Source: Alphaproteobacteria bacterium (GTDB taxonomy: Bacteria > Pseudomonadota > Alphaproteobacteria > Rickettsiales > UBA8987). Taken from it: 64,000 bases of DNA. The DNA lies in assembly GCA_031426355.1 (NCBI GenBank), contig JANPLD010000045.1, positions 11,121 through 75,120 of the forward strand, read 5' to 3'. The notes below the pieces were generated by a model that was not told the origin of the DNA, did not search any database, and worked only from the letters and a program-made list of their open reading frames with translations. Below, in pieces: positions 6,689-57,318 of this stretch; the stretch's first letter is position 1; the number at the start of each line of letters is the position of its first letter. The position numbers and the translations under genes are program-made.

Positions 6689-9634
6689 TTAATGAAAATT
6701 GGGGTTTTGACTTCTTTTTACTTCATCGGGATTTTTTCCTAAAGCCAATAAAGAAAAGTTTTTAGCACTTTCCCCTTTAAAGCCTATTCTTTTAGAAACC
6801 GCCTGTATAAGAAGAGTTTCATCAGTATTATATCCCCGCTCCCAACCACTTACTGACACATCGCTTATTCCTTTAACTACTTTTCCTGATCTTTCAAATT
6901 CTAATGATTTTGCAAAATCCACCTGGGTAATATTTGAGCCTGATTGCAAGCCTTCCCTTAGGCGTGCTTCTCTGACTATATCGCCCCATTTCAAAGCAGT
7001 TTTATTTTGCAATATGTCATTGAGCATTTCTTCCGGTGTTCTGATGGCCGGTATTGCTTCCAGCATTAATGCCGTATGATAGGCAAGGGTTTTGTCTGAA
7101 ATAAGATAGCTGACAGTTGCCCATTTTTTCTCCACATTTAAAGGAAATGAGATTTGCTTTTGATATCTTGAGAGGTTTTCTCCTATAGCTCTTATATTGC
7201 TATCTGATAATTCTTTTCCCGATCTATTTAGAAATTCTATAGAATAAGCCCTTAGTGATTCAATATTTTTTAATGATATAAGTTCAGTAAGGAAATTCCT
7301 TGGTAATTGATCTTTAAATTCATTTAATTTTTGTCCAAAATCTGTTTTTTCTTTATCACTTATAATAGTTTGATAATTCAAAATAAGTTTTGCGATCTCT
7401 TTTTCTTCACCTGAATATTTATTTATATCTATGGTGCGGTCTATATTATCAGGATTATTATATTTGAACTCATTTTGCGATTCTTCAACCTTCTCCTTAA
7501 GAAGTTTATCCAACTGTTTTAACGGTTTTTCCTTATTAACAGGATATTGAGAATAAATAAATTCCCGTATTAATTTTTTGTTAAATAGTTTTTTATATTC
7601 AGTTCTTGCTAATAATCTTTCGAAAGTTTCTAATATAGTTTTTAAATTATTAGGTTGCGGTAAAGCTCCTGTAATAACATAATTTTCTGAGCTTAGACCT
7701 CTAAGCTCACGATTAAGTTTTTTATATCCAAGCTGAGTTGCCTCCTTAAGGGCTGCAAACAAATTTTGAACTGTTGAAGGTTCCTGCAATTCAGAAATTA
7801 TAAAGGCTTTCTTATAATCTTCAAAAACTATATCACTAGCTGTATCTGATGCTTGGTTATCTAATTTTATATATTGTTCTTTAGTAGAAACTTTTTCTTT
7901 TACTAGCTTAACCAGGTTCTTTTCCTTTTCTCTTACAGTAGGTTTTGGTCTTTCCTTAGTTAATATTGGCTTTAAAACAGGCTTTTGTACAAGAGCTTTT
8001 AAGAATTGCTTTTTATCTATTTTATTATCTGTCGGAATTGCCAAGAAAATTTTTTCTGCATCTTCAATTTTTAATAAATTATTATTAGCTAAATATGATA
8101 AGGTTGCACTAGGTATATCAATGTTTTTTCTTCCAATAATTTTTAGAATTAAATTAAGCGCAATTTTAGAAGTAATTAATCCCGATTCTGTATCATTTAT
8201 AATAGACTGAATATTTTTTTTGATTTTAAATGAAAAATCATTTGAAAAAATCTCACCTGTTTCTTTCGAAAGTCCGATTACATTAGCAAATGCTAAGCCA
8301 ATTTTTTTTACTGCCTGATGGTGATACATAATTCCATCTGTCACAACTCTGTTTATATAGAAATTTACATGGTTAAAATGAAATTCCTTATCTAAAAAGT
8401 TGTTTATTAATGTATGATAATCAGCATTATTTAAAGCTCTTTGCTCAATATCAATTAAAATTAATTCTTTCGGCATAAATTGATTGTTTAAATAAGCTTT
8501 TTCCAGTCCATTAGGGCTATAAAATTTATGCCTTTGCCTTAATAAAGCTTGCAAAAGGTTTGAATCATCTCTGGTTAGTTGAAATTCCTGACTGATAGCT
8601 AATGATAATTTAAGTGCATTTGCTCTATCTGGAATGACATTATTTTCTTTTAAATAAAATTCCAAATTTCTACTGGGAAAATTATATTTGCGCGAAAATT
8701 CACTTATATTAACTTTCGCAAATATAGAGTTTAATAATGCCCCTATAAAAACTTTTGATTCCTTAAGATTATTTTTTATTTCTATAGATGTTTCTTTTAA
8801 TAAATTATGAACATTAAAATTACTTCTTCCGTAAAAGATATTTCTTAAAATTATATTTTGATTATCAGTTAATGGAAATGTATTTGCGAACTTATTAATT
8901 GTTACACTTTGAATAACTTCTGATTTTTGATTAAAAGAACGCCAGAAACTTCTATGATCTATAGGAAGTAAATCAAAAATTCTCCGATTTCCAAGCCCCC
9001 ACACTATGGATAAGGCAGGGATTAAGCTATGGTAATTAGTAATATTTCTACTTTGAAATTCGTCTAAAACCATACCAAAAGTTGGCATATGATAACAATT
9101 CTTTCCTTTATGAAGAGATGATAGTTTTAAATAAAATTGCCTATCTTTTTCTATAAAACTTTTATCCAGTGGAACAAGAAACTTTTTTGTTCTTAATCTA
9201 TCGTTTTCATTAAATTGAATTTCTCTGAAGTGGAGTTTCATAAATGATTTTTCATTTATGATGCCATAGGCTTCTAATCTATAACTGAAATATTGTGCAA
9301 GGTTATGATCAGGTAGTTCATCTCCTGTTAAAATATTTGTTATTTTAGCTAAACTTATTCTATCTTTTAAACCTATGTTATTCAAAAAGTCAGGTATATT
9401 TTCTGAGTTTAAGTGGTTATATAATTCAAGTAATTGGTCTTTAACTGAAATGCGCTCTTCAGATGACTTGGAATACATGATCCCAAGTCTATCCTGCTTT
9501 CCTTCATCTGTATATTCTTCATAATACTGGCCCTTTCTAAGATCTTCCTGAACAACTTCCTCATATTCGGCAAAAGGGTCTTCCTCATCAAAAAGACTAT
9601 CAAGATATTTCTGCCATTTAAGTTTTTTCTCCAT
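6689..9634 (-). CDS. Large hypothetical protein with C-terminal XRE-type HTH and several degenerate HTH-like segments
   Basis: 981 aa uninterrupted ORF; WGDIVREARLREGL...TQVDFAKSL...SVSGWERG is XRE-like. Confidence 0.6.
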   Translation of the reverse strand: MEKKLKWQKYLDSLFDEEDPFAEYEEVVQEDLRKGQYYEEYTDEGKQDRLGIMYSKSSEERISVKDQLLELYNHLNSENIPDFLNNIGLKDRISLAKITNILTGDELPDHNLAQYFSYRLEAYGIINEKSFMKLHFREIQFNENDRLRTKKFLVPLDKSFIEKDRQFYLKLSSLHKGKNCYHMPTFGMVLDEFQSRNITNYHSLIPALSIVWGLGNRRIFDLLPIDHRSFWRSFNQKSEVIQSVTINKFANTFPLTDNQNIILRNIFYGRSNFNVHNLLKETSIEIKNNLKESKVFIGALLNSIFAKVNISEFSRKYNFPSRNLEFYLKENNVIPDRANALKLSLAISQEFQLTRDDSNLLQALLRQRHKFYSPNGLEKAYLNNQFMPKELILIDIEQRALNNADYHTLINNFLDKEFHFNHVNFYINRVVTDGIMYHHQAVKKIGLAFANVIGLSKETGEIFSNDFSFKIKKNIQSIINDTESGLITSKIALNLILKIIGRKNIDIPSATLSYLANNNLLKIEDAEKIFLAIPTDNKIDKKQFLKALVQKPVLKPILTKERPKPTVREKEKNLVKLVKEKVSTKEQYIKLDNQASDTASDIVFEDYKKAFIISELQEPSTVQNLFAALKEATQLGYKKLNRELRGLSSENYVITGALPQPNNLKTILETFERLLARTEYKKLFNKKLIREFIYSQYPVNKEKPLKQLDKLLKEKVEESQNEFKYNNPDNIDRTIDINKYSGEEKEIAKLILNYQTIISDKEKTDFGQKLNEFKDQLPRNFLTELISLKNIESLRAYSIEFLNRSGKELSDSNIRAIGENLSRYQKQISFPLNVEKKWATVSYLISDKTLAYHTALMLEAIPAIRTPEEMLNDILQNKTALKWGDIVREARLREGLQSGSNITQVDFAKSLEFERSGKVVKGISDVSVSGWERGYNTDETLLIQAVSKRIGFKGESAKNFSLLALGKNPDEVKRSQNPNFH

Positions 9635-17684: not shown

Positions 17685-17729
17685 TGGTGGGATCGAGAGG
17701 ATTCAAACCTCCGGCCTACGGTTTAGGAA
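17685..17729 (-). mobile_element. Site A: 3' half of tRNA-Arg(CCU), allele with CGATCCC acceptor (attR-like)
   Basis: Minus strand TTCCTAAACCGTAGGCCGGAGGTTTGAATCCTCTCGATCCCACCA; no 5' half upstream. Confidence 0.9.
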
Positions 17730-17850
17730 TTTAGATAATTCATTTATCCTAACCTATCAGGCTTTTGCCTAATCTATCATAAGCAACTGAAATGTAAAAC
17801 CAATCTTTTGCACCAGTTTTCTTCGGTCTTTACCGAGTACCCTGTATAAA

Positions 17851-17902
17851 AGTTACTATACAGTTACTAATGCAAAGTTACTAACCGGAGAAAAGTTACT
17901 AA
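17851..17902. repeat. Four AGTTACTA repeats (arm-type sites of site A)
   Basis: AGTTACTA at 17851, 17862, 17876, 17894. Confidence 0.85.
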
Positions 17903-17940
17903 TTGTACTTATCTACTTACTTTTTAGGCAAATCTTAAGA

Positions 17941-18207
17941 TTAATTTCTAATTCTAGTGTTATCTATTTCTATTGCTTTTGGTCTAAGTGGTTCCTGATA
18001 AGTACCTTCTGCCACTCTTTTTGCTATATCCTTTCCTCTTATTGCAACTTCCTCACTAGTTAAGGATATCTCGGGTGGCTCAATATTTATACCTTTATAA
18101 AAGATTATCTTGAAAGAATATAATTCATAAAATTGAAATAAAGCCTTTAAGTATGCAGGATCTTTTTCTCCGTTAGCATATCCACTTGCTTCTGGCTTTT
18201 CTGGCAT
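17941..18207 (-). CDS. Hypothetical protein, possibly C-terminal fragment
   Basis: 88 aa ORF enclosed by a 42-bp direct repeat. Confidence 0.4.
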   Translation of the reverse strand: MPEKPEASGYANGEKDPAYLKALFQFYELYSFKIIFYKGINIEPPEISLTSEEVAIRGKDIAKRVAEGTYQEPLRPKAIEIDNTRIRN

Positions 18208-18217
18208 AGGAGTTACC

Positions 18218-18259
18218 CAGTTACTAATGTAAAGTTACTAACCGGAGAAAAGTTACTAA
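18218..18259. repeat. Second copy of 42-bp arm repeat (17861-17902), one mismatch
   Basis: CAGTTACTAATG(C/T)AAAGTTACTAACCGGAGAAAAGTTACTAA. Confidence 0.92.
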
Positions 18260-18270
18260 ATACTAATATA

Positions 18271-19293
18271 TTATAATCCCAAGCCATCAGTTAGGTTATT
18301 TATTTTGCCTTTCATAACAGGGCTATATAATTTATTTACCAAAGAAGGTAGTAAAGCGTCATTGGTTACTAACTCAGATAAATTATCTCCATCCTGCTTT
18401 AAGGTATCTAAAATAGTGTTGATATTTTTTGCTATTTCAGGTGTCCAGTTTACTGCAGGATTATCCGTCATAATGCTTGAAAACCCTACTATTTCTTGAT
18501 TCTCTGCTTTAAATCCTTTTAAAAATTTTATTTCTTCAGGAGTTAAGCCTTCATTATCAAAATCTTTTAATTTCTTTATGGTATTAGCGATTTCAGTATA
18601 TTCATCGCAGCTTAGCTGTTTTTTTGGATCTAAAATTGCATTTTCTATTTTGGGTTTACGATCCATATTTTTATAGCCGCCTCTATTCGGCAGCCCTAAT
18701 TCCTTTGCAAAGCCATCGGTAAAATCTGTAACATTTTCTTCAATTCTCTGAAAACTAGCAGTAGTTTCTCTAAGGATTTTTTCCGCACTATCTTTATCAA
18801 CGCTGAACTGCTTTGCGTAGTTTTCATAGTCTCCAAATATGCCGGAAGCATGAGTAAGCTCATGAAAAAAACGCTCTATAGATGGTGAATAACTAACTTC
18901 AGGGTCAGAGGTATTTTGAGCAACCTCCTGATTAAAATTTACTACTACATAACGTATATTTTTGTGTCCAATATCTTGTGGGCGCAAAATTCCTATTCCA
19001 TGCTTTTCAGCTATTTCCTCCCGTGCAAATGGCGTTATTCCAACTGGTATGAAATCAAAGCGGTTCCTTATTTCCGGGCTGGCCTGGACACTTTCATTGA
19101 ATCCAAAAACTTCCAATTTTTCATTCCTGCCTGTACCATCATTAAATAATGCATTGTCCTTAATGTACTTAAATACATCTTGACCTTTATCGCTATTTTC
19201 AATGGTGCATAACCATGCTTCCAAAGCATCTCTTACTTCTGGTATAGCGCAATTTATAGTTATTACATCTTCCCAGTTTATTTTATCCGGCAT
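18271..19293 (-). CDS. Hypothetical protein with HExxH zinc-metallopeptidase motif
   Basis: 340 aa; FFHELTHASG followed by EENVTDFTDGFAKELG. Confidence 0.6.
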   Translation of the reverse strand: MPDKINWEDVITINCAIPEVRDALEAWLCTIENSDKGQDVFKYIKDNALFNDGTGRNEKLEVFGFNESVQASPEIRNRFDFIPVGITPFAREEIAEKHGIGILRPQDIGHKNIRYVVVNFNQEVAQNTSDPEVSYSPSIERFFHELTHASGIFGDYENYAKQFSVDKDSAEKILRETTASFQRIEENVTDFTDGFAKELGLPNRGGYKNMDRKPKIENAILDPKKQLSCDEYTEIANTIKKLKDFDNEGLTPEEIKFLKGFKAENQEIVGFSSIMTDNPAVNWTPEIAKNINTILDTLKQDGDNLSELVTNDALLPSLVNKLYSPVMKGKINNLTDGLGL

Positions 19294-19335
19294 AATTCAA
19301 ATATTATATTGGAATGTAAGTTTACCACAAAAAGG

Positions 19336-19350
19336 TTAATATGCAGTTAA
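19336..19350 (-). promoter_or_regulatory. CtrA-type box TTAA-N7-TTAAC
   Basis: Minus strand TTAActgcataTTAAC, 43 bp upstream of the 340 aa ORF. Confidence 0.5.
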
Positions 19351-19585
19351 TCTTAAGGTTTATTTGTATATGTTATTCAAATTGATCATGCCAATTAGGT
19401 TATAATTTCTTTATTTATCACCACATAGCCTGCTGTATCATAACCCACTGAAACGTAGTAATATTCCCTTGTTTTTGCCTCTGGATGCAATATCTGGTGG
19501 CTATAAGGAATTATTATAAATTATGCCGGTAGCACATATTACAAAGAAGTTTGTTGATGGAATTAAATATCAGGGGAAGCAGGAG

Positions 19586-19828
19586 TTATTCCACGACAAT
19601 AAGTCCAGCTACAAATGCCGCAATCCCTTCCGTTATGCCTAGATTTGTAAAATGCGCTAGGGTTAATGCAGGAAACTCCCAAACTGTTACGCCCTTTATT
19701 AATTCTCCAAATAAGGTATCGCGGGCGCTAACCATTTCATTTTGATACTCGCGCATTTTAGGCACCAACTCAGTAGCTATTAATTTTGTAATAGCATCAG
19801 AAACGTTGTCGTTATTTATCTCATCCAT
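19586..19828 (-). pseudogene. Hypothetical protein fragment
   Basis: 80 aa ORF back-to-back with a truncated PLD gene; looks like a C-terminal remnant. Confidence 0.35.
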
Positions 19829-19839
19829 TTCAGCGGCTA

Positions 19840-20067
19840 ATGGATGATGCTGGAATTCCTATCCGCATCAATCGAAAATATTCAATAATGCATAATAAAT
19901 TTCTGGTTATAGATGGCCATACCGTTGAAACAGGAAGCTTCAATTATAGCGCAAATGCGGAGAAACGTAACGCCGAGAATGTAATAGTGATAAGAAATAA
20001 TGCGAATCTGGCTAAAAGATACCTTGAAAATTGGCAGAAATTATGGAATGAAGGCGAGGATTATTAG
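19840..20067 (+). pseudogene. Nuc-like phospholipase D family nuclease, C-terminal half
   Basis: HNKFLVIDGHTVETGSFNYS HKD motif and NAENVIVI; N-terminal half missing. Confidence 0.85.
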
Positions 20068-20093
20068 CTATCTTGAAAAGCTAATGTCAATTC

Positions 20094-20132
20094 GGGGTCG
20101 TAGCTCAGCCGGATAGAGCGGCGGTTTCCTAA
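20094..20132 (+). mobile_element. Site C: 5' half of tRNA-Arg(CCU), GGGGTCG allele (attL-like)
   Basis: GGGGTCGTAGCTCAGCCGGATAGAGCGGCGGTTTCCTAA, then non-tRNA sequence. Confidence 0.9.
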
Positions 20133-20249
20133 TCAGTGAGTCCAGAAAGTTAGGATTTTTGGATTATCCAATAATAATAAAGGCTTATCCTTCACATCAT
20201 CATCACCATATTAGGCAATTTTTCAATTAGTAACTCTATAGTAACTTTT
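20133..20249 (+). repeat. Arm X, diverged copy of 35527-35642 (inverted); TAGTAAC at 20228 and 20239
   Basis: Both start TCAGTGAGTCCA and end TTAGTAACTCTATAGTAACTTTT; many substitutions in between. Confidence 0.9.
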
Positions 20250-21915: not shown

Positions 21916-22818
21916 ATGTTATATATGAAAACAGGAAAAATACATAACTACAATACAAAAAAAGGTTTTACTCTCGTAGAATTAGCAATAGTACTGGTTA
22001 TAATTGGTTTGCTTGTAGGTGGCGTACTCCAAGGTCAGGAATTGATAAAGCAGGCGCAGATCAGAAGCGTTATTTCTCAGATGTCGGAATATGACACTGC
22101 GGTAAATACCTTCCGTGCAAAATATCAACAGATGCCCGGAGATATAAATCGTGCGGCCGCTTATGGTCTTAATTGTCCCGACATTGGTGCACCATGTACG
22201 GCAGGAACTGAAAACATGTCAGCTTTTGTAAGTGATTTCCCTTTGATTCCAGATGGCTCTCAAGGTAACGGTGATGCAGATGGAAGCTTGGAAACATCTA
22301 ATAATGCTGCGACTAGTAATGCAAGATTTTCTTATTATTCTGGTGAAATAGCAAATTTCTGGGTGCATCTTTCCAATACCTTATTAATAAAAGGTGGTTT
22401 TACGCAAACTGATGATTGTGTAACCTGCGGCGTATCCCCAGAAATAAACTTCCCACCTGCTGCAGTAGGTAAAGGTATGATAGCTCTAACGGAAGGTGGT
22501 CGAATATATTATGTGCTTGGAACCTCAGGTAACTATACTACTGTTGCTTTTGCTGCAGCATCTGGTTCACCTGGAACTCTTGTCACTGATGACCTTACCC
22601 CTGACGAAGCATTCGCATTTGATTCGAAATTGGATGACGGGGCTGCAAAAACAGGTGTAGTACAAACAGTATATAGATGGAATGAGAATCCTCCATACGG
22701 ATTATTTACCCCTGTAACAGGCGGCACCGCAGTTACTGATTGCCATACCACCACTGGTGTATACAATCTTACAAATGATAGCAATTTATGCACACTTAAA
22801 GTTAGAGCTTCAAGCTGA
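21916..22818 (+). CDS. Prepilin-type N-terminal cleavage/methylation protein (pseudopilin-like)
   Basis: KKG|FTLVELAIVLVIIGLLVGGVL class III signal; PGD and D-x-KLDDG motifs. Confidence 0.9.
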   Translation: MLYMKTGKIHNYNTKKGFTLVELAIVLVIIGLLVGGVLQGQELIKQAQIRSVISQMSEYDTAVNTFRAKYQQMPGDINRAAAYGLNCPDIGAPCTAGTENMSAFVSDFPLIPDGSQGNGDADGSLETSNNAATSNARFSYYSGEIANFWVHLSNTLLIKGGFTQTDDCVTCGVSPEINFPPAAVGKGMIALTEGGRIYYVLGTSGNYTTVAFAAASGSPGTLVTDDLTPDEAFAFDSKLDDGAAKTGVVQTVYRWNENPPYGLFTPVTGGTAVTDCHTTTGVYNLTNDSNLCTLKVRASS

Positions 22819-23010
22819 TTATAACTTAATTCCTTCTTTCAGATAATCTGCAACTTTCTGTTGCTGAACGCTCAGGTGCTTAAGGTCTTGTTTAATATAC
22901 CTAGCAGTAACGGTACTTTTTTGCTGGGGGCTGATTTGCTAGCACCTCAATATCGTAGGTGATAACCCTGCGCTGTTGGCATCAGTAGTGTATGTATCCC
23001 TTATTAGCCA
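22819..23010 (-). pseudogene. Tyrosine integrase C-terminal relic 1 (frameshifted)
   Basis: Across two frameshifts: LIRDTYTTDANSAGLSP-YDIEVLANQPPAK-STVTARYIKQDLKHLSVQQQKVADYL; homologous to 24482-24626. Confidence 0.7.
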
Positions 23011-24366: not shown

Positions 24367-24382
24367 TTAGGAAACCGACGCT
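24367..24382 (-). mobile_element. Site I: 16-nt relic of a tRNA-Arg 5' half ending at the anticodon loop
   Basis: Minus strand AGCGTCGGTTTCCTAA, identical to site G over 16 nt. Confidence 0.7.
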
Positions 24383-24480
24383 GAATATTGCCGGTTGATC
24401 CGAATCGGAATATCAGCATCATCTATAGCCTCAACTGCGGGATAATCCCTCTTGGCATGAGTTTTATGTTCAATTATGAG
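24383..24480 (-). pseudogene. Second PLD/Nuc nuclease relic
   Basis: Translates ...EAIDDADIPIRINRQYS; 12 of 14 residues identical to DDAGIPIRINRKYS of 19840-20067; fused to site I. Confidence 0.8.
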
Positions 24481-24481
24481 C

Positions 24482-24626
24482 TTATATTTTAGTTCTCTCT
24501 TTCAAATAATCGGCAACTTTCTGTTGCTGTACGCTCAGGTGCTTAAGGTCTTGCTTTATGTATCCGGCAGTAACAGTGCTTTTTGCCGGACGGTGATTGG
24601 TTAGCACTTCTATATTGCTCCAGTCC
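24482..24626 (-). pseudogene. Tyrosine integrase C-terminal relic 2
   Basis: NIEVLTNHRPAKSTVTAGYIKQDLKHLSVQQQKVADYLKERTKI*, with the NH...VTxGY catalytic His/Tyr pattern. Confidence 0.75.
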
Positions 24627-24639
24627 TTTTTAACCTCAA

Positions 24640-24658
24640 CCTTACTAGGGCCTTATTT
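24640..24658. repeat. Orphan CCTTACTA arm pair
   Basis: CCTTACTAGGGCCTTATTT, same as the outer end of arm W at 27481. Confidence 0.75.
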
Positions 24659-24692: not shown

Positions 24693-25145
24693 TCATCTGG
24701 CAATAAGCGATATTATATCCAGGATAATCCTGGTTTTATCTGATAATAACAGAACGTCATTACCCACCATTCCATAATATGCGTTTGCGGGCGGAGGTGG
24801 GAGCTGGGCTAATAATCCATTAGGTAACCTTCCCCAGGTTATATCTGAGGTGAGTGGCTGGCCCACTACTAATTTCTTATATTGCCCGGGAGGCATGCAT
24901 AATGGATTTTTCTTCGCTAATCCAGGAGGGCATTTTTTAACCTGAACATTATTATTATTCAGGTAAGTTACTATTATATCCCGGTCATGGGAACTGAATT
25001 TTGCCGGTCTGTCAGCGTGATGTTTTTCATGGGAATGCTTATTCTTGCCATTATTCCCGTGCTTTTCATTCTTACTATATGCAGGGTTAAAAGATAATGT
25101 AGCCAAAGCAACGGCTGCGATCATTTTTATACTAAGATTTTTCAT
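24693..25145 (-). CDS. RcnB-like periplasmic protein
   Basis: Signal peptide, His-rich N-terminus, CPPGLAKKNPLCMPPGQ, LPPPP...YGMVGNDVLL. Confidence 0.7.
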   Translation of the reverse strand: MKNLSIKMIAAVALATLSFNPAYSKNEKHGNNGKNKHSHEKHHADRPAKFSSHDRDIIVTYLNNNNVQVKKCPPGLAKKNPLCMPPGQYKKLVVGQPLTSDITWGRLPNGLLAQLPPPPANAYYGMVGNDVLLLSDKTRIILDIISLIAR

Positions 25146-25183
25146 ATGTTTACTTTGACTGTAGTGATTAATACTAAGATAAA

Positions 25184-25843
25184 TTAGTTTATAGGGCTTA
25201 TTTTTACTTCAACACGTCTGTTCTGGGCACGTCCGGATTCTGTGTTATTACTTGCTATAGGCTCACTTTCACCCCTACCATTTACATATAAACGATTAGA
25301 ATCAACACCATTGCTTATCAACATGGATGTAACTGCCTGAGCACGCTTTTCGGATAACGTTTTATTATAAGAATCATTTCCTACATTATCCGTATGCCCT
25401 AAAACTTCTACATTAGTTTGTGGATATTGGTTTAAAATATGAGCTATATCACTTAGGGTGCCATTAAATTCAGGGCGAACTGAACTGCTGTCAAACCCGA
25501 ATGTTATACTGTTAGGCATGTTTAATAGAATATCATTGCCGTCTCGGCGAACATCAACTCCCGATCCTGCTAATTCCTGGCGCATTGCATTTTCCTGGCG
25601 ATCCATATATTGTCCTATACCACCTCCTGCTAAGGCCCCAATTCCAGCGCCTATTGCACCACGCTCAAGCCTGTCTTTGGAATCTTCTCCAGTAAGGGCT
25701 CCTGCCGCACCACCTATTAAAGCACCCAGCCCTGCACCTTTATATGTTTTCTGGTTTTGTTGGTATCCCGGCCCTTGTTGGCATGAGGCCAATATACCTG
25801 AGCATATAATGGCTGAGAGTGTAATTGATGAAATACGGATCAT
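25184..25843 (-). CDS. OmpA-family lipoprotein (YiaD-like) with glycine zipper
   Basis: Lipobox LASC; GAGIGALAGGGIG; GHTDNVG, LSEKRA, NRRVEV. Confidence 0.92.
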   Translation of the reverse strand: MIRISSITLSAIICSGILASCQQGPGYQQNQKTYKGAGLGALIGGAAGALTGEDSKDRLERGAIGAGIGALAGGGIGQYMDRQENAMRQELAGSGVDVRRDGNDILLNMPNSITFGFDSSSVRPEFNGTLSDIAHILNQYPQTNVEVLGHTDNVGNDSYNKTLSEKRAQAVTSMLISNGVDSNRLYVNGRGESEPIASNNTESGRAQNRRVEVKISPIN

Positions 25844-26025
25844 GTGGGACGCCTTTAATGTTAATTATTAAACATAAATGCGCACGTATTATATAAAGAT
25901 TCCATTATTAATAGAAATTAAGAAACTGTTACACTACCGATTAAATAAATATGAAGAAAGATTTTGCTTATGGATCGCTATAATAAATAGCAGAGCGTTG
26001 AGGAACGCTCTGCTATTTGTGCGTA

Positions 26026-26481
26026 TTAGAAGCGGCCTTTTTCATTATTTCTATCATTAACCTTGTCATGGTTGCGGTTATCAGAATGCTCTTTATTATT
26101 TTTAACTCTGGAAGAGCTATCCATATCATCATCGTCAGCTAGAGTCGCACGTGCAGAAGTGCTGGATGATGTTCCGGTGTCACCGCTAGTTGAGTCACCT
26201 TTAGCGCTACTCGCACCTGTTGTCGAATTAACATCCGTTCCAACGTTGGTGTTTACACCGGTACGGGCTGTATTTGAGCCTGTCCTAATACCGCCATTGA
26301 TACGTATATTGTCACCTGTAGTAACTCCACTATTTAACCTGGTATCAACGCCCGTATTTACACCAGTTGTCGTGTTAGTTGTTGAAGTGGCACTAGTACT
26401 TTTATCAGCAGCAATTGCCGCATCAAAGGAAGTTAGCGCTGTAGTAACAGCTAAGGCTAAAGCTATAAATTTAATTTTCAT
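26026..26481 (-). CDS. Secreted low-complexity T/G/S-rich protein
   Basis: Signal peptide; repeated TGV(N/D)T units. Confidence 0.55.
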   Translation of the reverse strand: MKIKFIALALAVTTALTSFDAAIAADKSTSATSTTNTTTGVNTGVDTRLNSGVTTGDNIRINGGIRTGSNTARTGVNTNVGTDVNSTTGASSAKGDSTSGDTGTSSSTSARATLADDDDMDSSSRVKNNKEHSDNRNHDKVNDRNNEKGRF

Positions 26482-26631
26482 ATATCCTCTCAGATTAGTT
26501 AACCCCTATAATCACAAAATGCCTAATTATATTTATATAAATTATCTATGTGGTTATCTGCAGAAATAATAAAATTACTTAACAGTCTTTTGCATTGATA
26601 GTTTGTTATTATAACGAATTGCCTGATGATA

Positions 26632-27125
26632 TTATATCATCCCCACCACCAACAGCAAACCAATGGCCAGCAAGAGAACAGCAATTATCCTCTGAATTGA
26701 TGGTATGGTAATTTTCTTCAGGTAATACTTACCCATAATCGCTCCAGCAAATGCTGAGATACAGACAAGTGTGATTAATAAACTATTTCCCTTCTCCGCA
26801 ATTACTGAAAAGCTCAGCCCGTATATTATTATTCTGGCTATATCAACCAGTGCGGCAATAGCAGAATTGGTTGCTACAAAAGCATTTTTATCAAGATTCA
26901 GATGAACCAGGAATATACTTCTAAAGGCTCCCTGATGTCCTGATAACCCTCAGAAGAAACCACTTAATGCACCACCAGCAGGAAGCCATTATCTTGTGGA
27001 TAACAAACTTATTCTGAACCAACATGAACTCTGCTATGGCAAAGGCTACCAGTAATATCCCAACAAGCAGCTTAACTATAGTAATCTCAGCATTAACTCC
27101 TAAAAGAGAATAACCATAGGCTTTA
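26632..27125 (-). pseudogene. TauE/SafE (TSUP) membrane transporter fragment with frameshift and in-frame stop
   Basis: WLPAGGALSGFF*GLSGHQGAFRSIFL...FVATNSAIAALVDIAR; not in the ORF track. Confidence 0.75.
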
Positions 27126-27314
27126 TCAATATGGGCAATTTCTGTTAAGACATGTGAAAAACATAGGCCGGAACAATTGCCAATAATAAATTATATTAGT
27201 GGTGGCCTTGAAAACCCTATAATACGAAAAGAGGTATGCCTGATACTTGAAGGTGGCGAAATTGCATTTAGAGAAATAGCAAAACGCTTGAGAGTAAATT
27301 TTACATAGATTATT

Positions 27315-27359
27315 TGGTGGGAACGAGATGATTCGAACATCCGGCCTACGGTTTAGGAA
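27315..27359 (-). mobile_element. Site D: 3' half of tRNA-Arg(CCU), CGTTCCC allele (attR-like)
   Basis: Identical to 33133-33177 and 34131-34175, inverted. Confidence 0.92.
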
Positions 27360-27499
27360 AGCCAAGCCTCTGATTTTAAAAGCTTATATGGTCTTTTTAA
27401 ACTGTAACTCCAAACGGAGTTTAAACCAAAAAATCTCCAAATCTTGTTTTATACAATACTAGCCCTTTTTTAAACCGCAACCTTACTAGGGCCTTACTA
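27360..27499. repeat. Arm W; CCTTACTA at 27481 and 27492; diverged inverted copy of 33992-34130
   Basis: CCAAGCCTCTGATTTTAAAAGCTTATATGG...AAACCGCA(A/G)CCTTACTA shared, with scattered substitutions. Confidence 0.92.
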
Positions 27500-27562
27500 A
27501 TTGCAACTGAATTTAAGCTACGAAATATTATCTGCTGAACCTGTTTTGATCAAAATTAAATA

Positions 27563-30500
27563 TCATGTCATTTCAGTTTTGGTTAGCCAGTAATTTATTT
27601 TCTCTATAACGTTTTCTTTTTTGACGGGTTTATTCAGATAATCATCCATGGCAGATTTCAGGCATTTCTCCTTGTCACCCTGCATGGCATCAGCGGTTAT
27701 AGCAATAATAGGTATGTGTTTTTTGTTACCTCTATTTTCCTCTATTTGCCGTATTTTTTCCGTTGCTTCAAAGCCATCCATTTCGGGCATCTGGCAATCC
27801 ATAAGAATGAGATCATAATTAAATTTATTGAACATATCTATTGCCTCGATACCATTTGCGGCTGAATCTGCTCTGCACCCAAGTGTCTTTAGGAAGTTCA
27901 TTATCAGCATGAGGTTAACTTTCATGTCTTCGACCACTAATATGCGGTATCTGGAGTAATCTATATCAGTATTATTTTTTGTTATATTGCTGCGTTTATT
28001 ATTACGCCTTATATCTTCTATATGTTGTCTGGTAAGAAATCTTATTTTGCAATTATTTTTTCTTGAATCTACCAGAAGTGAGATCATATCTTTTAAATGT
28101 ACCGGTTGCAAAGGCTTTAACAGGAATCCCTTAAACCCTGCTTTTTCCATATCACTGTAAGACCTGTATTTTTCAGATGAAAGTGTTGAGGTAAATAATA
28201 TCATTATTAAATTTTTTGCCCATTCTTGTGATGCTATAAGCTCTGCAAGTTTTGAGCCGTTCATGTCTGAAAGTTCATAATCTATTATCGCAACATCATA
28301 AGGCTTGCCGTCGCTAGCAGCTTTTTGCAAGGCATTCCACACTTCTTCGCCTTCCGCGAATATATCGAAATTGGTTTTAAGATTTGTAAAGAGATTGGTA
28401 AGTATCTCACGATTTGGTTTATAATCATCTACAGCTGCTATTCTGATCTTGGAGAAATCAACCTCGGGAATTGAAGTGATCTCCTGAGCTTCACCTTTTT
28501 CTAGAGTTATGTCCAAATAAAAAGCAGAACCCTGATTGATAGCACTTCTTACTCCGATATTACCGTTCATCATTTCCACGAGTTTTTTGCTTATAGAAAG
28601 GCCAAGTCCGGTGCCGCCGAATTTTCTGGTAGTAGATTCCTCTGCCTGCGCGAATTTATTGAAAATATATTCAAGTTTATCTTCTGGAATACCAATACCT
28701 GTATCCTCTATTTCAAAAAATAACCTTATCTTATTTTCTTTCCTTTCACTTCTTACCCGGAGTAACACATGTCCTTTGGAAGTGAATTTGATAGCATTTC
28801 CTGCAAGGTTAAGGATTATTTGCCTCAAACGTCCCGGGTCACCTATATAATATTCTGGTATATCAGGGGAATAATCTACCAGAAGCTCTATTTCTTTTTC
28901 CTTCGATTTAAGCAGAAGCATATCCATAACATCATCAATGACTGAACTTAGAGAAAAGTTTATATTATCAAGTTTCAGTTCACCGGCTTCGATTTTTGAG
29001 AAATCCAGTATGTCGTTAATTATATCAAGTAAGTTCTCTGAGGATTTTCTTACTATACTTGCCCAGCCTTGCTGTTCCTTATTAAGTTCAGTATCAAGCA
29101 GAAGGTTTGTCATACCCAATATGCCGTTCATGGGTGTTCTTATCTCATGGCTCATACTTGCTAGAAAGTCTGATTTTGCCTGATTTGCCGATTCGGCAAT
29201 CGTTTTCATCTTTTTGAGGTTATCTTTTGATTGCTCACGTTCTATAACCTGTACCAGCTGGTTTGCCGCATCCTTCATTATATCAAGCAATTCCTGAGCA
29301 GGCTCATCAATATGCGGGGAGAAGAATTCAAATACATATTCTACATTACCATTTATAATTACCGGACATGCAAGTCCTGACTTAACCCCAAGTGATAACG
29401 CCATTTTTGCCCGAGGGAAATTAGGGTCTTTGGTTACATCCGGTATCCATAAAGTGTCATGTTTTTGCCAGACTCTTCCGGGTAGCCCTTCTCCTTTTGA
29501 GAATTCTTTTGCCTCTGATATTTCCCTGAAAGTTCTATAATATTCTTTATTTTCCTTAAACCAAATACCGGTGGAACGAAGTAATTCTTTTTCATGGTCC
29601 AGAATGTAAGCATGGCCAACCGGCCATTTCATGAATTCACACAGGTTTTTAATAATATCCCTTATTGCTTCCTCAACATTTGAGGCAAGGTTAGCAGTTG
29701 TTGCAATGCTACGTAAAAGGGCAACTATCTTTGCTTCTTTTTCGGTACGCTTTTTTGCCTGTAATGCAAGTTTTTCTGCCTGTTCTTTTTTTGTAAGATT
29801 TCGATAGAGGAAGATAAAAATAATTATCAATCCTAATAGGGCGACAATACTGGAGTAAAGAACCAAAGAGCGTTTAAGCCTATGATTTGCCATGCGTTCC
29901 TTAAGAAGTTTGAGGAACATTTCTGCAGTTTCATCATAAAGGATTTCATATAAATTGATAGTATCGCTGGCTATCTTAAACATTTCAGAGGATGACAGAG
30001 TTTTTTTGTTCCTGAAAAATATCTGGTCAAAATAGCCAAGTAATTCTTTCAGTTTAGGTTCTATCATTTTGTTATGATAGTTAATGAACTGCAAGGTGTC
30101 TTTATTTGCCACGGATGCACGTTCCAGCGCATTTTTAAGCTCACCTTCAAGAACTATCAGGCGGTTATATAATAACTGTAAATCCCTTATATCCCGTTTT
30201 TTCCAGTTATTTGGTTGTTTGCCTGAAGCAAGTAAACCTGTGGTAATACCACGTAACCTTCCCATAGTTTCCATTAGCTTAGGGGTAATATTTACTGAAG
30301 CAGTTGAAAGATAATCACCGACCAATTGCGGATCGTTGGAAAGGTTAGCGTTATCTGCAAGGTCTTCCATAAAATGGAGGAGGGAATCTATAGTTTTGGT
30401 ATAATGTCTGAATTCCTCTATTGCTGTATGATTATCTTTTTTATTTAATAATAGCAGAACATTATTTTTTAGATTTTTCCAATTAGTGCTTACTAGTAAT

Positions 30501-31552
30501 TCCTTTCCAAAAGACTCATCTATTTTAGCTGTTCTTACGATAGATTTTTTTACTTCTTCTCTTTTGGGTGTAAGTTTTTCTGCTGCTGATTCATCACCAT
30601 TTCTTGCGGCATAGGTAAGACCTCTCAATTCCATTATACGCTGAAGAAAATCAGTTAAGGAATCATGATATAATACTCCGTATTCTTCCTTTTTTGCGAA
30701 TTCTATATCAAAATCAAGGTTTGTAATAGCTTGATATACTATGGTAGCTAAAGGAAGCGAGAAAAGTGCGGCACAGCCAACCATCAGGAAAAGTCGGTAT
30801 GAGATGGCAAATGTAAATATTACCAGAATAAGTGTGGTAATTGATATGATTGCTATTGCGAGGGCATCAAAACTCTGGTTAGTGCCGAAAAGACAGTCAG
30901 GAAAAGGAATAAAGACGGCTGCGGTCATCCCTGTATAATGCATGCCACAGATAGCGATACCCATTACTAAAGCTGCAATAATCCTCCATGTGATCTGTCC
31001 TTTCCCGCTATGTCTTCCTAGAGTGAATATTATCCAGAGTGCCGCTGCTGATGCGGTAATTGCTATGATGATTGAAAGGATAAAAAGAGAAGGGATATAA
31101 CGCATCTCTGCCCGCATTTCCATAGCTGCCATACCAGTATAATGCATGGAGCTGATACCGAAACCGAGCAATATGGCACTGATAATTATTCTTGTTATGG
31201 AAAGTTTTGCCGCCTGAATTATTTTCAATACGAAATAAGCGACACCTATGGCAATTATCATAGATAATGCGGTTAGCCACGGGTCATAATGCACTGTCAT
31301 ATTCATCTTATAGGCAAGCATCCCTATAAAATGCATTGACCATATACCGCTTCCTAGGGCAAAGGCACCAGTCCAATGGAATATACGTTTTTGTTTACTG
31401 TTAGATGCATTAATAAGCCTTGTTGCAAGAGTTAATCCTGCGTATGATCCGAAGGATGCAACAATATAAGAGGCCAGTATCAGAAGAGGGATATACATTC
31501 CCTTTTCTGAATTTAAAGGAATATTTCCCGTGATAAAAAAAGATTCAAGCAT
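27563..31552 (-). CDS. Hybrid sensor histidine kinase: MHYT, periplasmic helical sensor, GAF, HisKA, HATPase, two REC
   Basis: [24 protein letters not shown]; [15 protein letters not shown]; GGTGLGL; two receiver domains; start uncertain (31498-31606). Confidence 0.92.
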
Positions 31553-31655
31553 ATAGTTATATTGCTGACGATGCGAATTAATAGCAATAATTATTCTTAT
31601 ATTCAATTATTAGTTGAAGTTTGGTAAATTATTATTTATTAGCAGGACACTTAAT

Positions 31656-32090
31656 ATGGTTGAATTAAAAGAAATAGACATAAACGCTTTTAAAAAAGCT
31701 ACCGCAAACAGGAACAGAAGAAATAATCTGCTTATCCTGATTGTGGAAGATCAAAGATTTTCAAGGATCCTGTTAAGGAGCTACCTTTCAAAGGAATACG
31801 AAGTGATAGAGGCTTCGGATGGTGAACAGGGACTTGTTGAATATATGACAAGATCACCCGACATAGTTTTTCTTGATATTGAGCTTCCAAAAGTAAATGG
31901 CCATAAAGTTGCGGAGCTTATTTCAAAGCTGGATAAGGATTCATTCATAATCATGGTTACTGCCAATAATCACACTTCAGACGTTATGAAGGCGAAAGAA
32001 AATAATGTGAAGGGATTTATAGTAAAACCATATACCAAGGCCAAAATTAATGAGGCGGTGGAGATATTTTTAAAGCAACATTTGAAATAA
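31656..32090 (+). CDS. Single-domain response regulator (CheY-like)
   Basis: ILIVED, FLDIELP, MVT, FIVKP; AGGAC before ATG 31656. Confidence 0.88.
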   Translation: MVELKEIDINAFKKATANRNRRNNLLILIVEDQRFSRILLRSYLSKEYEVIEASDGEQGLVEYMTRSPDIVFLDIELPKVNGHKVAELISKLDKDSFIIMVTANNHTSDVMKAKENNVKGFIVKPYTKAKINEAVEIFLKQHLK

Positions 32091-32095
32091 ATATC

Positions 32096-32419
32096 ATGAC
32101 AATTGACCTGACAAATCTAAGGGGTATGACTGGCGGTGATAAAGAGCTTGAAAAAGAGCTTTTTAAGGAGTTCGTATTGTCCGGAGATAAACTGATCGCA
32201 GAACTAAAAAAGAGTTTAGCCGATAATTATAATGAATCATGGTGTACGGTTTCTCACGGGTTTAAAGGAATAGCACTTAATCTTGGAGCTGAAAACCTTA
32301 GTGAGTTATGCAAGAAAGCACAAATGAATGATTCTCCCACCAATGCGGATAAACAAAGTCTGCTTACGCAAATAGAATTAGAATATAATAAAGTGAAAGA
32401 ATTGCTTGGTAGTTTATAA
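32096..32419 (+). CDS. Hpt phosphotransfer protein
   Basis: SHGFKGIALNLGAENLSELC Hpt motif. Confidence 0.88.
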   Translation: MTIDLTNLRGMTGGDKELEKELFKEFVLSGDKLIAELKKSLADNYNESWCTVSHGFKGIALNLGAENLSELCKKAQMNDSPTNADKQSLLTQIELEYNKVKELLGSL

Positions 32420-32460
32420 AGATAACAACTTTAAGCTTTGCAATAAAGTTTAGAGTCGTA

Positions 32461-32479
32461 ACCTACTAACGCCTTACTT
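32461..32479. repeat. Orphan degenerate CCTTACTA arm pair
   Basis: ACCTACTAACGCCTTACTT followed by TTTCTCATACTCT, like 24640-24670. Confidence 0.55.
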
Positions 32480-32534
32480 TTTCTCATACTCTTCCTTTTT
32501 ATAAGAATATATGGTATAATGTATTGCGAATGTT

Positions 32535-32816
32535 TTGGCAGCCATTAGGTCTGGGTCATTCAGTACAATATATGCGCAATCTATGTGCAAGGAATTTGTT
32601 AAAAGATCATTACATGATCCTGAATCAGCGGATTTTGAATCTAGTAAAACTTATCCTGTTACCGAGGAAGCAGGAGGAATATTCACAGTCGAGGTTTCAG
32701 TAAGAGCTAGAAATGCCTTTAATGCAATGAGGAATACCATAGTTTCTTGCAAAGCAAAAAGGGAAGAAAGCGGGTGGACATTACTTAATCTTGAAAACCT
32801 AAATAATGAAAAATGA
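32535..32816 (+). CDS. Hypothetical protein, possibly fragment of a mobile-element gene
   Basis: CKEFVKRSLHDPESADF...VRARNAFNA; TTG start; overlaps the next gene. Confidence 0.45.
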   Translation: MAAIRSGSFSTIYAQSMCKEFVKRSLHDPESADFESSKTYPVTEEAGGIFTVEVSVRARNAFNAMRNTIVSCKAKREESGWTLLNLENLNNEK

Positions 32817-33100: not shown

Positions 33101-33177
<77 letters not shown>

Positions 33178-33420
33178 TTAAATTAACTCTGGTTGTTTTT
33201 TATATTGAGCTTTTTTATCTAAATTAGATTTCAGTGCGTCACTATATATTTGCTCTGCATTATAAGGCATAAGTAAATCTTTGTTTATTATATCTTCTAA
33301 ATCTTCCTTCGTTATAACCAGAATTCCATGCTTCTCAGCATCTTCTACCTCTGTTTTAACTGCCCCTTTAGATTTTAAAGTAATAATGATAGGCAAAACA
33401 TTGTATTGATTTACATAAAG
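33178..33420 (-). pseudogene. C-terminal fragment of an unrelated (possibly nuclease-like) protein; stop abuts the tRNA CCA
   Basis: LYVNQYNVLPIIITLKSKGAVKTEVEDAEKHGILVITKEDLE, in a different frame from the TIR ORF. Confidence 0.45.
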
Positions 33421-33928
33421 CGAAACCAATTTCTTGTTGCGTCCAAACACTCTCTGAAAAGCCTTGAGTATGTATAGTAATCATTGCATCCATAGTATGC
33501 AGAGCTTTTTCTATTTCGTTTTGCCACTCTCTTGAGGGATTAATGTCTTCGTGTGCAACAAAACCAGATATATAATATGTGGCTAAAGTTTCTTTTAATC
33601 TAACTGCTTTATCTTTATGAATAGCTAAATGGCTTATAAACAAGCGAAAGTTTTTAGATTCTTGCCATATCTCCGGAGGATTAATGCCCTTAATTTCGGA
33701 AGAAAATGTATCTATTTCTAGCTCATTTGCTATAGATAAAAGCTTATTATTATTAGCATTTTTTAATGCTTCTTTAGAATATACCCATTTACTATTATAA
33801 CTTAACGGCCCACTTGGTGTAGTTAAACCAAAACTTTCTAGGAATATATCTATATCACTATAACCATAACGTGCTTGCAATTCACGACCTATTCTATCAA
33901 TTAATTTTAATCTTTGGCTTACCTTCAT
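33368..33928 (-). pseudogene. TIR-domain protein, C-terminally truncated or chimeric
   Basis: FRLFISH, GFVAHEDINPSREWQNEIEKAL, SVWTQQEIGFAL (catalytic Glu); TIR-like sequence ends at ~33420. Confidence 0.78.
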
Positions 33929-33991
33929 AAAAGCATCTAATTACAACCCCGAGTATATAAGAAAACTTTTTATAGTCTAATTAAGTTATAA

Positions 33992-34130
33992 AAGTAAGGC
34001 CTTAGTAAGGCTGCGGTTTAAAAAGGTGCTGGCCTTGTATAAAAAAAGATTTGGAGATTTTTCGGTTTAACTCCGTTTAGAGCTAGAGTTTAAAAAGGCC
34101 ATATAAGCTTTTAAAATCAGAGGCTTGGTT
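33992..34130. repeat. Arm W copy; AGTAAGG pair within 33992-34010
   Basis: Inverted homolog of 27360-27499. Confidence 0.92.
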
Positions 34131-34175
34131 TTCCTAAACCGTAGGCCGGATGTTCGAATCATCTCGTTCCCACCA
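34131..34175 (+). mobile_element. Site F: 3' half of tRNA-Arg(CCU), CGTTCCC allele (attR-like)
   Basis: TTCCTAAACCGTAGGCCGGATGTTCGAATCATCTCGTTCCCACCA. Confidence 0.92.
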
Positions 34176-35471: not shown

Positions 35472-35526
35472 GATTAACAAAATAATAGGGATAAAGTATG
35501 ATTTTAAATACCGGAAATACACTATA

Positions 35527-35642
35527 AAAGTTACTATAGAGTTACTAATCAAAAAATTGCCTGATTTTGCGATGATGAGATAAGGAATAAGCCCTTATAA
35601 TGATTGAATAATCTAAAAATCTGAACTTTTTGGACTCACTGA
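35527..35642 (-). repeat. Arm X copy; GTTACTA at 35530 and 35541
   Basis: Inverted homolog of 20133-20249. Confidence 0.9.
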
Positions 35643-35681
<39 letters not shown>

Positions 35682-35738
35682 AATAGATTTGGATTCGGAA
35701 AATATACTAAACTTTTAAAAATGCAATTCTTTAGAAAA

Positions 35739-35830
35739 CCTTACTATAGCCTTACTTTTGGGTTTTCTGTATTGGATTTAAGGCAGAATAATCAGTAAAT
35801 ACAAATTGTTATAAAATTTCAACCCACTTA
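35739..35830 (-). repeat. Arm Z; CCTTACT at 35739 and 35750
   Basis: CCTTACTATAGCCTTACTT. Confidence 0.75.
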
Positions 35831-35869
35831 TTAGGAAACCGCCACTCTATCCAGCTGAGCTACGCCCCG
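35831..35869 (-). mobile_element. Site H: 5' half of tRNA-Arg(CCU), CGGGGCG allele, next to core gene gpsA
   Basis: Minus strand CGGGGCGTAGCTCAGCTGGATAGAGTGGCGGTTTCCTAA. Confidence 0.9.
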
Positions 35870-56917: not shown

Positions 56918-56992
56918 GGCCCCGTTGTCTAGCGGTTAGGACATCGCCCTTTCACGGCGGTAGCACGAGTTCGAATCTCGTCGGGGTCACCA
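56918..56992 (+). tRNA. tRNA-Glu(TTC)
   Basis: GGCCCCG/CGGGGTC acceptor, anticodon arm TCGCC-CTTTCAC-GGCGG, TTCGAAT loop, CCA. Confidence 0.93.
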
Positions 56993-57157: not shown

Positions 57158-57318
57158 TTCAGCATATAGAAAAATTCTTTTATTAAGCCCTTGATTAAGA
57201 TGCCCAAAAAATATATACTTTTTTGTGTAACCATTTGAATTTACACGCTATTTTGTTCATAGGCGTTCATATTTGTTCATGTATGACCGTTTTATTAAAA
57301 ACAAATAAGGAGAATAAT

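Follow-up and report, generated by a model that had tools for sequence, protein, structure and literature searches.

The window analyzed here is a 64,000-nt stretch (positions 11,121 to 75,120 of contig JANPLD010000045.1) of a metagenome-assembled genome (MAG) of the Rickettsiales, in which ARAGORN identifies one tRNA-Arg(CCT) gene and one tRNA-Glu gene, and in which an array of broken tRNA-Arg copies surrounds the intact one. The intact gene, here called E (33101 to 33177, plus strand), is the sole tRNA-Arg(CCT) among the 37 tRNAs that ARAGORN calls in the genome, and it alone scores as tRNA-Arg in Rfam (RF00005; 65.7 bits), which the fragments do not. E supplies the tRNA-Arg(CCU) function of the cell. 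The genome also carries two tRNA-Arg(UCU) genes, which may read AGG, and because of these tRNA-Arg(CCU) may be dispensable in this host. A blastn search with E as the query recovered seven further tRNA-Arg(CCU) pieces, all inside 18 kb, and these pieces and E fall in the interval that separates gpsA from the acrB operon. Each of the pieces begins or ends at the anticodon loop, TTCCTAA. An earlier note on this DNA had proposed that two of the pieces, A and C, bound a 2.4-kb segment whose inversion would rebuild a tRNA gene, and that the locus can be rearranged so as to switch tRNA copies on or off.

From left to right, the pieces are A, a 45-nt 3' half (17685 to 17729, minus strand; 91% identity to E; E value, 1.5e-11; core at 17723 to 17729); C, a 39-nt 5' half (20094 to 20132, plus strand; 95% identity to E; E value, 9.5e-13; core at 20126 to 20132); a 16-nt 5' fragment (24367 to 24382, minus strand); D, a 3' half (27315 to 27360, minus strand); and, beyond E, F (34130 to 34175, plus strand), which like D is a 3' half with the same sequence as that of E, followed by two 5' halves on the minus strand, G (35643 to 35681) and H (35831 to 35864), the last with a 1-nt deletion and a junction that adjoins gpsA. 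The TTCCTAA core is identical at A, C, D, E, F, G, and H and in the fragment at 24367, and the inverted orientation of the cores at A and C is as the earlier note had it. While the 7-mer TTCCTAA by itself occurs in the window at chance frequency (19 matches observed and 17.5 expected), the blastn E values of the tRNA halves, 1e-11 to 1e-21, are far beyond chance. The heptamer GTTACTA (TAGTAAC on the other strand), which had been taken for an arm-type site at A and C, is enriched in the window (25 matches versus 6.1 expected; none of 100 shuffles reached 25) and forms clusters beside A (17852 to 17901), C (20228 to 20245), and G. On the minus strand, G and A (spaced 17.9 kb apart) form one pair of direct repeats and H and D form another, and H and F are inverted; the site orientations therefore agree with the geometry that had been claimed for the recombinations G × A, H × D, and H × F.

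When each piece was oriented in the sense of the tRNA and its flanks were compared, two types of junction, attL-type (5' half, core, arm) and attR-type (arm, core, 3' half), and two families of arms were found. Family 1 consists of attL-type C and G, which share a homologous 117-nt arm (P'1) after the core, and of attR-type A; its arm sites are a TAGTAACnnnnTAGTAAC pair in the arms of C and G and four TAGTAAC repeats at A. In A (P1 arm, core, B'), the P1 arm occupies 17730 to 17902 on the minus strand, and its four repeats lie 120 to 180 nt from the core, with one pair at an exact 11-bp period. In C (B, core, P'1), the arm runs from 20133 to 20249 on the plus strand and ends in a TAGTAAC pair at an 11-bp period; this pair and that of G (junction at 35526 to 35681, minus strand; 5' half, core, P'1 arm) lie 95 to 113 nt from the core. 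A core-less copy of the P1 arm cluster, with three TAGTAAC repeats, is found at 18218 to 18259 on the minus strand (97.6% identity to 17861 to 17902). Family 2 consists of attL-type H (35682 to 35868, minus strand; 5' half, core, and a P'2 arm with AAGTAAGGctaTAGTAAGG) and two attR-type junctions, D (27315 to 27513, minus strand; P2 arm, core, 3' half) and F (33979 to 34175, plus strand), and has TAGTAAGG pairs as its arm sites. Genome-wide, arm-site pairs of either family at an 11-bp period are restricted to the locus, save one chance pair in a coding region. The identity between C and G, compared over 5' half and P'1 arm, is 86.5% over 156 bp, and that between D and F is 90% over 199 bp.

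The element-side flanks of the core at A, C, D, F, G, and H have no similarity to a tRNA, and no tRNA is rebuilt at any of these junctions. By their sequence, the six are best read as attL- and attR-type junctions of integrases whose attP would share only the 7-nt core with the tRNA; since only the core is shared, integration would split the tRNA into two orphan halves. G lies 149 nt past the core of H, exactly where the family 2 island's own tRNA would be expected, and H, the P'2 arm, and G together form a ladder of 5' halves.

Positions 5/68 and 27/43 distinguish the alleles of the halves. A (A68, G52-C62, and a TTTGAAT T-loop) and C (T5 and C17) share the compensatory acceptor pair T5-A68, where E has A5-T68, and at 27/43 C pairs with A as G-U, as in E. 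The assignment of A and C to one allele, designated allele 2, is thus upheld at the first pair and compatible with the second. G (T5 and T27) also carries T5, and combined with A it would form U-U at 27/43. As a test of partnership between halves, ARAGORN was uninformative; it accepted every one of the 16 possible pairings of a 5' half with a 3' half as a tRNA, and for this reason the allele assignment rests on positions 5/68 and 27/43. Inversion of 17730 to 20125 in silico gave a 77-nt cloverleaf that ARAGORN identifies as tRNA-Arg(CCT). All of its acceptor pairs (7/7) form, and it differs from E at six positions, namely, T17C, C56T, and two compensatory pairs. In the other product, the core is separated by about 120 nt from four TAGTAAC repeats on one side and by about 95 nt from two on the other, an arm-core-arm arrangement like that of an attP. 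The crossing-over of A with C described in the earlier note would therefore yield both of the products named there, and the concern voiced there that the TTTGAAT T-loop impairs the rebuilt tRNA was justified. Among the tRNA-Arg(CCU) copies and halves compared here and in relatives, C56T was found only in A, and the remaining copies keep TTCGAAT, including the 3' half of a Rickettsiales MAG (L027, below) with the same GGAGG/CCTCT T-stem.

The segment between A and C carries, on the minus strand, two cargo open reading frames (ORFs) of 88 aa (17941 to 18207) and 340 aa (18271 to 19293), both without a Pfam, NCBIfam, or PHROG match; the longer one contains a HELTH (HExxH-like) motif and may encode a metalloprotease-like effector. 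On the plus strand are a doubtful relic of an integrase N terminus (MPVAHITKKFVDGIKY...; 19520 to 19639), a weak match to profile positions 1 to 25 (hmmsearch E value, 0.7), and a truncated Nuc/PLD-like gene (19840 to 20067), of which the C-terminal 75 aa (about 40%) with HxK are left (PF13091, positions 66 to 132 of 132; phrog_12711, positions 98 to 161 of 162). Beyond C, a second, C-terminal integrase relic with an in-frame stop (22822 to 23010, minus strand) has, from 22822 to 23004, 62% identity to residues 331 to 391 of the integrase of a related Rickettsiales MAG (G017). A scrambled relic (24367 to 24657, minus strand) contains, in order, a family 2 arm-site pair, an integrase C terminus (24485 to 24652, of which 24485 to 24616 has 82% identity to residues 348 to 391 of the G017 integrase), a PLD fragment, the 16-nt tRNA 5' fragment, and the core. 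An int-PLD-tRNA unit thus occurs twice, once as the N-terminal int relic, PLD fragment, and C and once as the C-terminal int relic, PLD fragment, and the fragment at 24367.

These relics indicate that a cognate integrase was once present. No integrase domain was found in any ORF between 17 and 36 kb, and a family-profile search found no intact cognate integrase in the 98%-complete MAG, where the best match was a truncated pseudogene at 120 bits and the other integrases scored 37 to 77 bits, compared to 409 to 658 bits for true members of the family. The pseudogene (contig C95 of this genome, G000; 1185 to 2096) runs for 304 codons, after which stop codons follow, and has tRNA-like sequence adjoining it. 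The genome's other integrases were considered as partners of the relics and rejected: tblastn with the ten PF00589-bearing ORFs matched in the window only an unrelated integrase at 57199 to 58524. The latter, an intact 442-aa P4-like integrase preceded by tRNA-Glu(TTC) (56918 to 56992), belongs to a separate island. It shares 44 to 47% identity with a further two of the genome's integrases but is unrelated to the relics.

For the layout in the source, a freshwater-sediment metagenome, we used the Logan contigs of the source run. A 16,152-nt Logan contig begins 13 kb to the left of the stretch from A to C and continues with zero differences through A and the 2.4-kb segment into the 5' half of C, and a second contig (20103 to 20785) joins the allele-specific base of C to the P'1 arm; the depths of the two are similar (8.6 and 6.4). 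The break between them falls at the 5' half of C, where words of 30 to 34 nt are shared with high-depth tRNA-Arg genes of other organisms. The longest exact repeats at the locus, 46 to 49 bp, are below the read length. The Logan contigs support the present layout against misassembly and leave room for minority forms. The inversion joint was absent from these contigs, which at about 8x show the present orientation alone and do not resolve rare variants. The attP1 junction was absent from IMG/VR, and the core-plus-P'1 junction and the allele 2 T-arm/acceptor were absent from JGI metagenomes; in the 400 genomes of the order, core plus P'1 arm was found at no site beyond C and G. None of the junctions predicted in the earlier note was therefore recovered, whether in the source-run contigs, the 400 genomes, IMG/VR, or the JGI metagenomes.

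A joint between 33100 and 35632 on opposite strands was considered as a rearrangement product and, on a closer look, turned out to be a 570-nt contig, carrying two 5' halves in tandem, from a different locus or organism. In this contig (at 35632 to 35682; 3.3x), the two tRNA-Arg 5' halves are spaced by 130 nt, and the first 11 nt of the arm (tcagtgagtcc) are those of the family 1 P' arm, so that the community seems to include relatives of the TAGTAAC-type element. The stretch from 24968 to 32700 has almost no Logan depth, though the word index has it complete in the run; its contig probably falls in the 10% of the run beyond the portion covered here, and the low depth does not speak for a mis-join.

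The same architecture was discovered in an apparently intact state in relatives. In G017, a Rickettsiales MAG of the same family and another genus, a 9.45-kb island (L013; CAYRJW010000003, 6403 to 15932) starts with a 5' half, TTCCTAA, and an arm (AAGTAAGGtaatGGTAAGG), followed by a DUF2806 gene, a complete inverted tRNA-Arg(CCT), and a VapE primase, and continues with an Xis-like helix-turn-helix (HTH) protein, a 397-aa integrase (PF00589 and Arm-DNA-bind_3), an Ank/Sel1 protein, and an arm, TTCCTAA, and a 3' half. Homologues of the integrase, fetched from named genomes, are members of the family with 37 to 63% identity in Kordiimonas (L020; OZ001196.2), Algihabitans albus (L019; NZ_CP159482.1), and a further Rickettsiales MAG (L027; JANQJY010000049.1), so that the family extends to free-living Alphaproteobacteria. 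In L020 and L027, an orphan 5' half, a P' arm with an arm-site pair, and a complete tRNA-Arg(CCT) are followed by the island body, int, a P arm, and an orphan 3' half, and the two orphan halves are mutually paired (e.g., CCAGA/TCTGG), unlike the tRNA of the island (ACAGA/TCTGT). In L019, an orphan 3' half lies 120 nt from int. A complete tRNA-Arg(CCU) thus stands between orphan halves in L013, L020, and L027, and neither junction rebuilds a tRNA there. The arm sites of the G017 and L027 integrases (TAGTAAGG/TAGCAAGG) are unlike the TAGTAAC arms. At two further loci, L015 (G030:C7, approximately 8514 to 8890) and L014 (G024:C30, 8495 to 8738), a complete tRNA is preceded by orphan 5' halves, one or two in number and spaced 130 to 150 nt apart, each half followed by a near-identical 113- to 130-nt arm. 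Such a ladder of half-tRNAs is the signature that serial integration into the tRNA of the previous island would leave, and the succession of H, P'2 arm, and G resembles the ladders of L014 and L015 and has its counterpart in the architecture of L020 and L027.

We consider it probable that A and C are fossil attR- and attL-type scars of islands that split the tRNA at which they integrate and replace it with their own, and that the two arose by nested integration; taken together with a variant in which a single inversion in cis produced both, a fossil origin is very likely. The 18-kb tract holds the stacked and decayed remains of three or four island events at the least. In the proposed mechanism, tyrosine integrases like those of lambda and P4 would exchange strands within the 7-nt anticodon loop TTCCTAA of tRNA-Arg(CCU), leaving two orphan halves, the 5' one with the P' arm behind it and the 3' one with the P arm ahead of it; the island would bring a complete tRNA-Arg(CCU) of its own, and that copy would become the landing site for the next island. 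The junction anatomy, the architecture in relatives, and the loss of the integrase are observed; the order of events given next is inferred. A TAGTAAC-type island would have entered the tRNA of an earlier island, with G as its attL and A as its attR. That island would have carried its own tRNA downstream of int-PLD, inverted with respect to the att sites and about 2.4 kb from attR, as in G017. A second TAGTAAC-type island would then have split this inverted tRNA and produced C, whose partner junction would later have been deleted. By this nested history, A and C would appear partnered because both come from island-borne tRNAs with the same acceptor stem. Signs of decay are the 1-nt deletion in H, G27T in G, C56T in A, the truncated PLD gene, and the divergence of the arm copies to 86.5% and 90% identity. 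Under either fossil history the segment cannot invert today by site-specific recombination, because the cognate integrase has been lost.

Several observations weigh against this reconstruction. The order H, G, F, E, D, the 24367 fragment, C, and A is beyond what nested integrations alone produce; the H-D and G-A pairs, as defined by arm type and allele, interleave, so that at least one further inversion, deletion, or transposition is needed. An event-by-event reconstruction of the eight sites was tried, and no nested series gave the present order without extra inversions or deletions. Position 27/43 slightly favors C with A (G-U) over G with A (U-U). Searches of the 400 genomes of the order, IMG/VR, and the JGI metagenomes brought up no intact TAGTAAC-type island. 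The MAG is a draft of 136 contigs, and the cognate integrase could conceivably lie on an unbinned contig. Finally, the evidence for orientation consists of contigs assembled at about 8x, which drop rare variants.

Two other routes to an intact island or an empty site were followed and abandoned. PLD homologues in IMG/VR, as a lead to an int-PLD-tRNA island, gave eleven loci, none with an adjoining tRNA and one with a distant integrase. Synteny with two same-genus genomes did not yield an empty site; in one of them (G002), the acrB homologue, tRNA-Arg(CCU), and gpsA-purK are scattered over three separate places. Because synteny is lacking in the same-genus genomes, the ancestral state cannot be read from them, nor the additional rearrangements resolved. 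The sole recurrent neighbor near gpsA in these genomes is a pilin-like gene. In the window this gene (21916 to 22818, plus strand) has an N-terminal methylation motif, and three tandem paralogues lie 3 kb from gpsA in G002 (L039; G002:C3, 13455 to 16117) and face the other way with respect to gpsA, which hints weakly that one lineage underwent an inversion of the pilin-bearing segment.

The closest competitor to nested integration is a single historical event in cis, in which a resident attP (P1-core-P'1) recombined with the island's own inverted tRNA, a perfect attB located 2.4 kb away and downstream of int-PLD, and so inverted the segment, with the loss of both sites. A and C would then be true partners, and the inversion described in the earlier note would exactly undo something that once happened, the outcome having been frozen by the loss of the integrase. 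We regard such an event as unlikely, and no more probable that A and C are partners in this sense, even though A and C share T5-A68 and, as in E, G27-U43; the state before inversion would be a coherent module of attP, two cargo genes, int, PLD, and tRNA, with the int-to-tRNA order and inverted tRNA of G017; and later islands demonstrably use island-borne tRNAs as attB. An attP in the chromosome requires entry as a dimer or some other route, as a free circle that had inverted itself could not integrate. G, moreover, has T5 too and makes up, with A, an ordinary attL...attR pair in direct orientation, and a self-inverted module was not seen in any relative. Islands that bring along the tRNA they target are open to self-recombination. 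That A and C record self-recombination of an island, in which inversion between attP and its own tRNA destroyed the att site and the tRNA at once and thereby fixed the island in the chromosome, is rather doubtful. If it were true in general, the speed at which islands are domesticated would depend on the inverted or distant position of their replacement tRNA, and self-recombination could explain scrambled arrays of tRNA halves.

That the locus is still alive, flipping 17730 to 20125 and other blocks and switching tRNA copies, appears very improbable. Its geometry is right, its arm sites are well preserved, and the same metagenome holds the low-depth contig with a two-half ladder and the start of a P'1-like arm. 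Against this stand the absence of an intact cognate integrase from both the window and the 98%-complete genome, the lack of an inversion joint in the source contigs and of any predicted junction in the public collections searched, and the C56T that a rebuilt tRNA would carry while E covers the function. Of the rearrangeable locus envisaged in the earlier note, the parts that stand are the geometry and the nature of A and C as recombination junctions; a live state is not supported, given that only relics of the integrase remain, PLD is truncated, and the arms have diverged. The on/off switching of tRNA copies is likewise not supported, given the intact E, which already serves the cell, and the missing integrase. 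We attach very little credence to an assembly artifact in which the MAG contig was mis-joined at short repeated tRNA pieces and the inverted arrangement would exist in no cell. The assembly is from a metagenome and the Logan contigs do break at the 5' half of C, but the 16,152-nt contig passes without differences through A and the segment into C, the second contig joins the C-specific base to the P'1 arm at similar depth, and the exact repeats are shorter than the reads. Functional split tRNA genes, with halves transcribed apart and joined in trans as in Nanoarchaeum, would account for halves broken exactly in the anticodon loop. The flanks of the break, however, are integrase arms with arm-type repeats rather than complementary leader and trailer, the halves are decaying at H, A, and G, an intact gene exists, and the same pattern is bounded by integrase islands in relatives, so that this origin is exceedingly improbable.

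Two blocks around E deserve mention. D and the 3' half of E (33132 to 33177) are perfect 46-bp inverted repeats around 5.8 kb that encode an MHYT/GAF hybrid histidine kinase and small ORFs; homologous recombination at these repeats could invert the 5.8-kb block without an integrase. The gap between E and F (33178 to 34130), between direct repeats 998 bp apart, holds only a TIR-domain ORF (33368 to 33928; PF13676), which is probably the last cargo of a nearly deleted family 2 island.

Among known systems, the fim switch (FimB/FimE) and the shufflons are promoter and gene switches inverted by tyrosine recombinases. As in these, a short inverted core surrounds a segment of a few kilobases; unlike these, the A-C segment has no adjoining recombinase gene and no evidence of two orientations, and its sites consist of tRNA halves at att junctions, not of dedicated inverted repeats. 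A live switch would have meant a new mode of tRNA regulation, but the evidence points to a fossil. Closer in geometry are the tripartite integrative and conjugative elements (ICEs) of Mesorhizobium, for which Haskett et al. in PNAS in 2016 reportedly described integrase-driven chromosomal inversions between inverted att sites. Here, too, attL- and attR-type sites are inverted, and recombination between them would invert the DNA and recreate attP and attB. The tripartite ICEs differ in having intact integrases and excisionases and in having been observed in both states, whereas here the recombinase is lost and one state is seen.

The classical tRNA islands with P4-type integrases cataloged by Islander are inserted in tRNA genes, with sublocation at the anticodon loop and displaced tRNA fragments at their ends (PMC4383910). 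The present islands are alike in integrase insertion into a tRNA, anticodon-loop sublocation, arm-type sites, and tRNA fragments that mark the ends (PMC4383910). In contrast to classical islands, whose attP holds the 3' part of the tRNA and regenerates the gene so that only 3' fragments are displaced, the islands described here leave orphan 5' halves, with a tRNA at neither junction. Ladders and scrambled arrays of half-tRNAs would result as one island after another overwrites the tRNA that its predecessor brought in. Recognizing this pattern keeps such arrays from being misannotated as split tRNA genes or switches, and it provides precise island boundaries in poorly known intracellular bacteria.

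The strategy itself corresponds to tRNA-dependent lysogeny, which was demonstrated experimentally in 2024 for actinobacteriophages (Fionnbharth/subcluster K4, cluster L, and others; Guerrero-Bustamante and Hatfull, mBio; PMC10865867). In the mycobacteriophage case, the common core is short, no tRNA is rebuilt, and a phage tRNA complements the loss, and the authors suspected a wider occurrence (PMC10865867); a Sinorhizobium paper brings up tRNA-dependent lysogeny for some prophages (PMC12429752). The islands described here share with it a tyrosine integrase with an arm-binding domain, paired arm-type sites, and junctions neither of which is a tRNA. Unlike the actinophages, the carriers are small P4-like islands (int, an Xis-like HTH protein, a VapE primase, and effector-like cargo) without virion genes, their hosts are Alphaproteobacteria including Rickettsiales, their target is the anticodon loop of tRNA-Arg(CCU), and the copies in the window are dead relics. 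The islands match the split-and-replace strategy of tRNA-dependent lysogeny, and by analogy the host might depend on the tRNA of the island, although here the two tRNA-Arg(UCU) genes may make tRNA-Arg(CCU) dispensable. A strategy proven in 2024 only in actinophages thus appears to be used also by P4-like islands in Rickettsiales, Kordiimonas, and Algihabitans.

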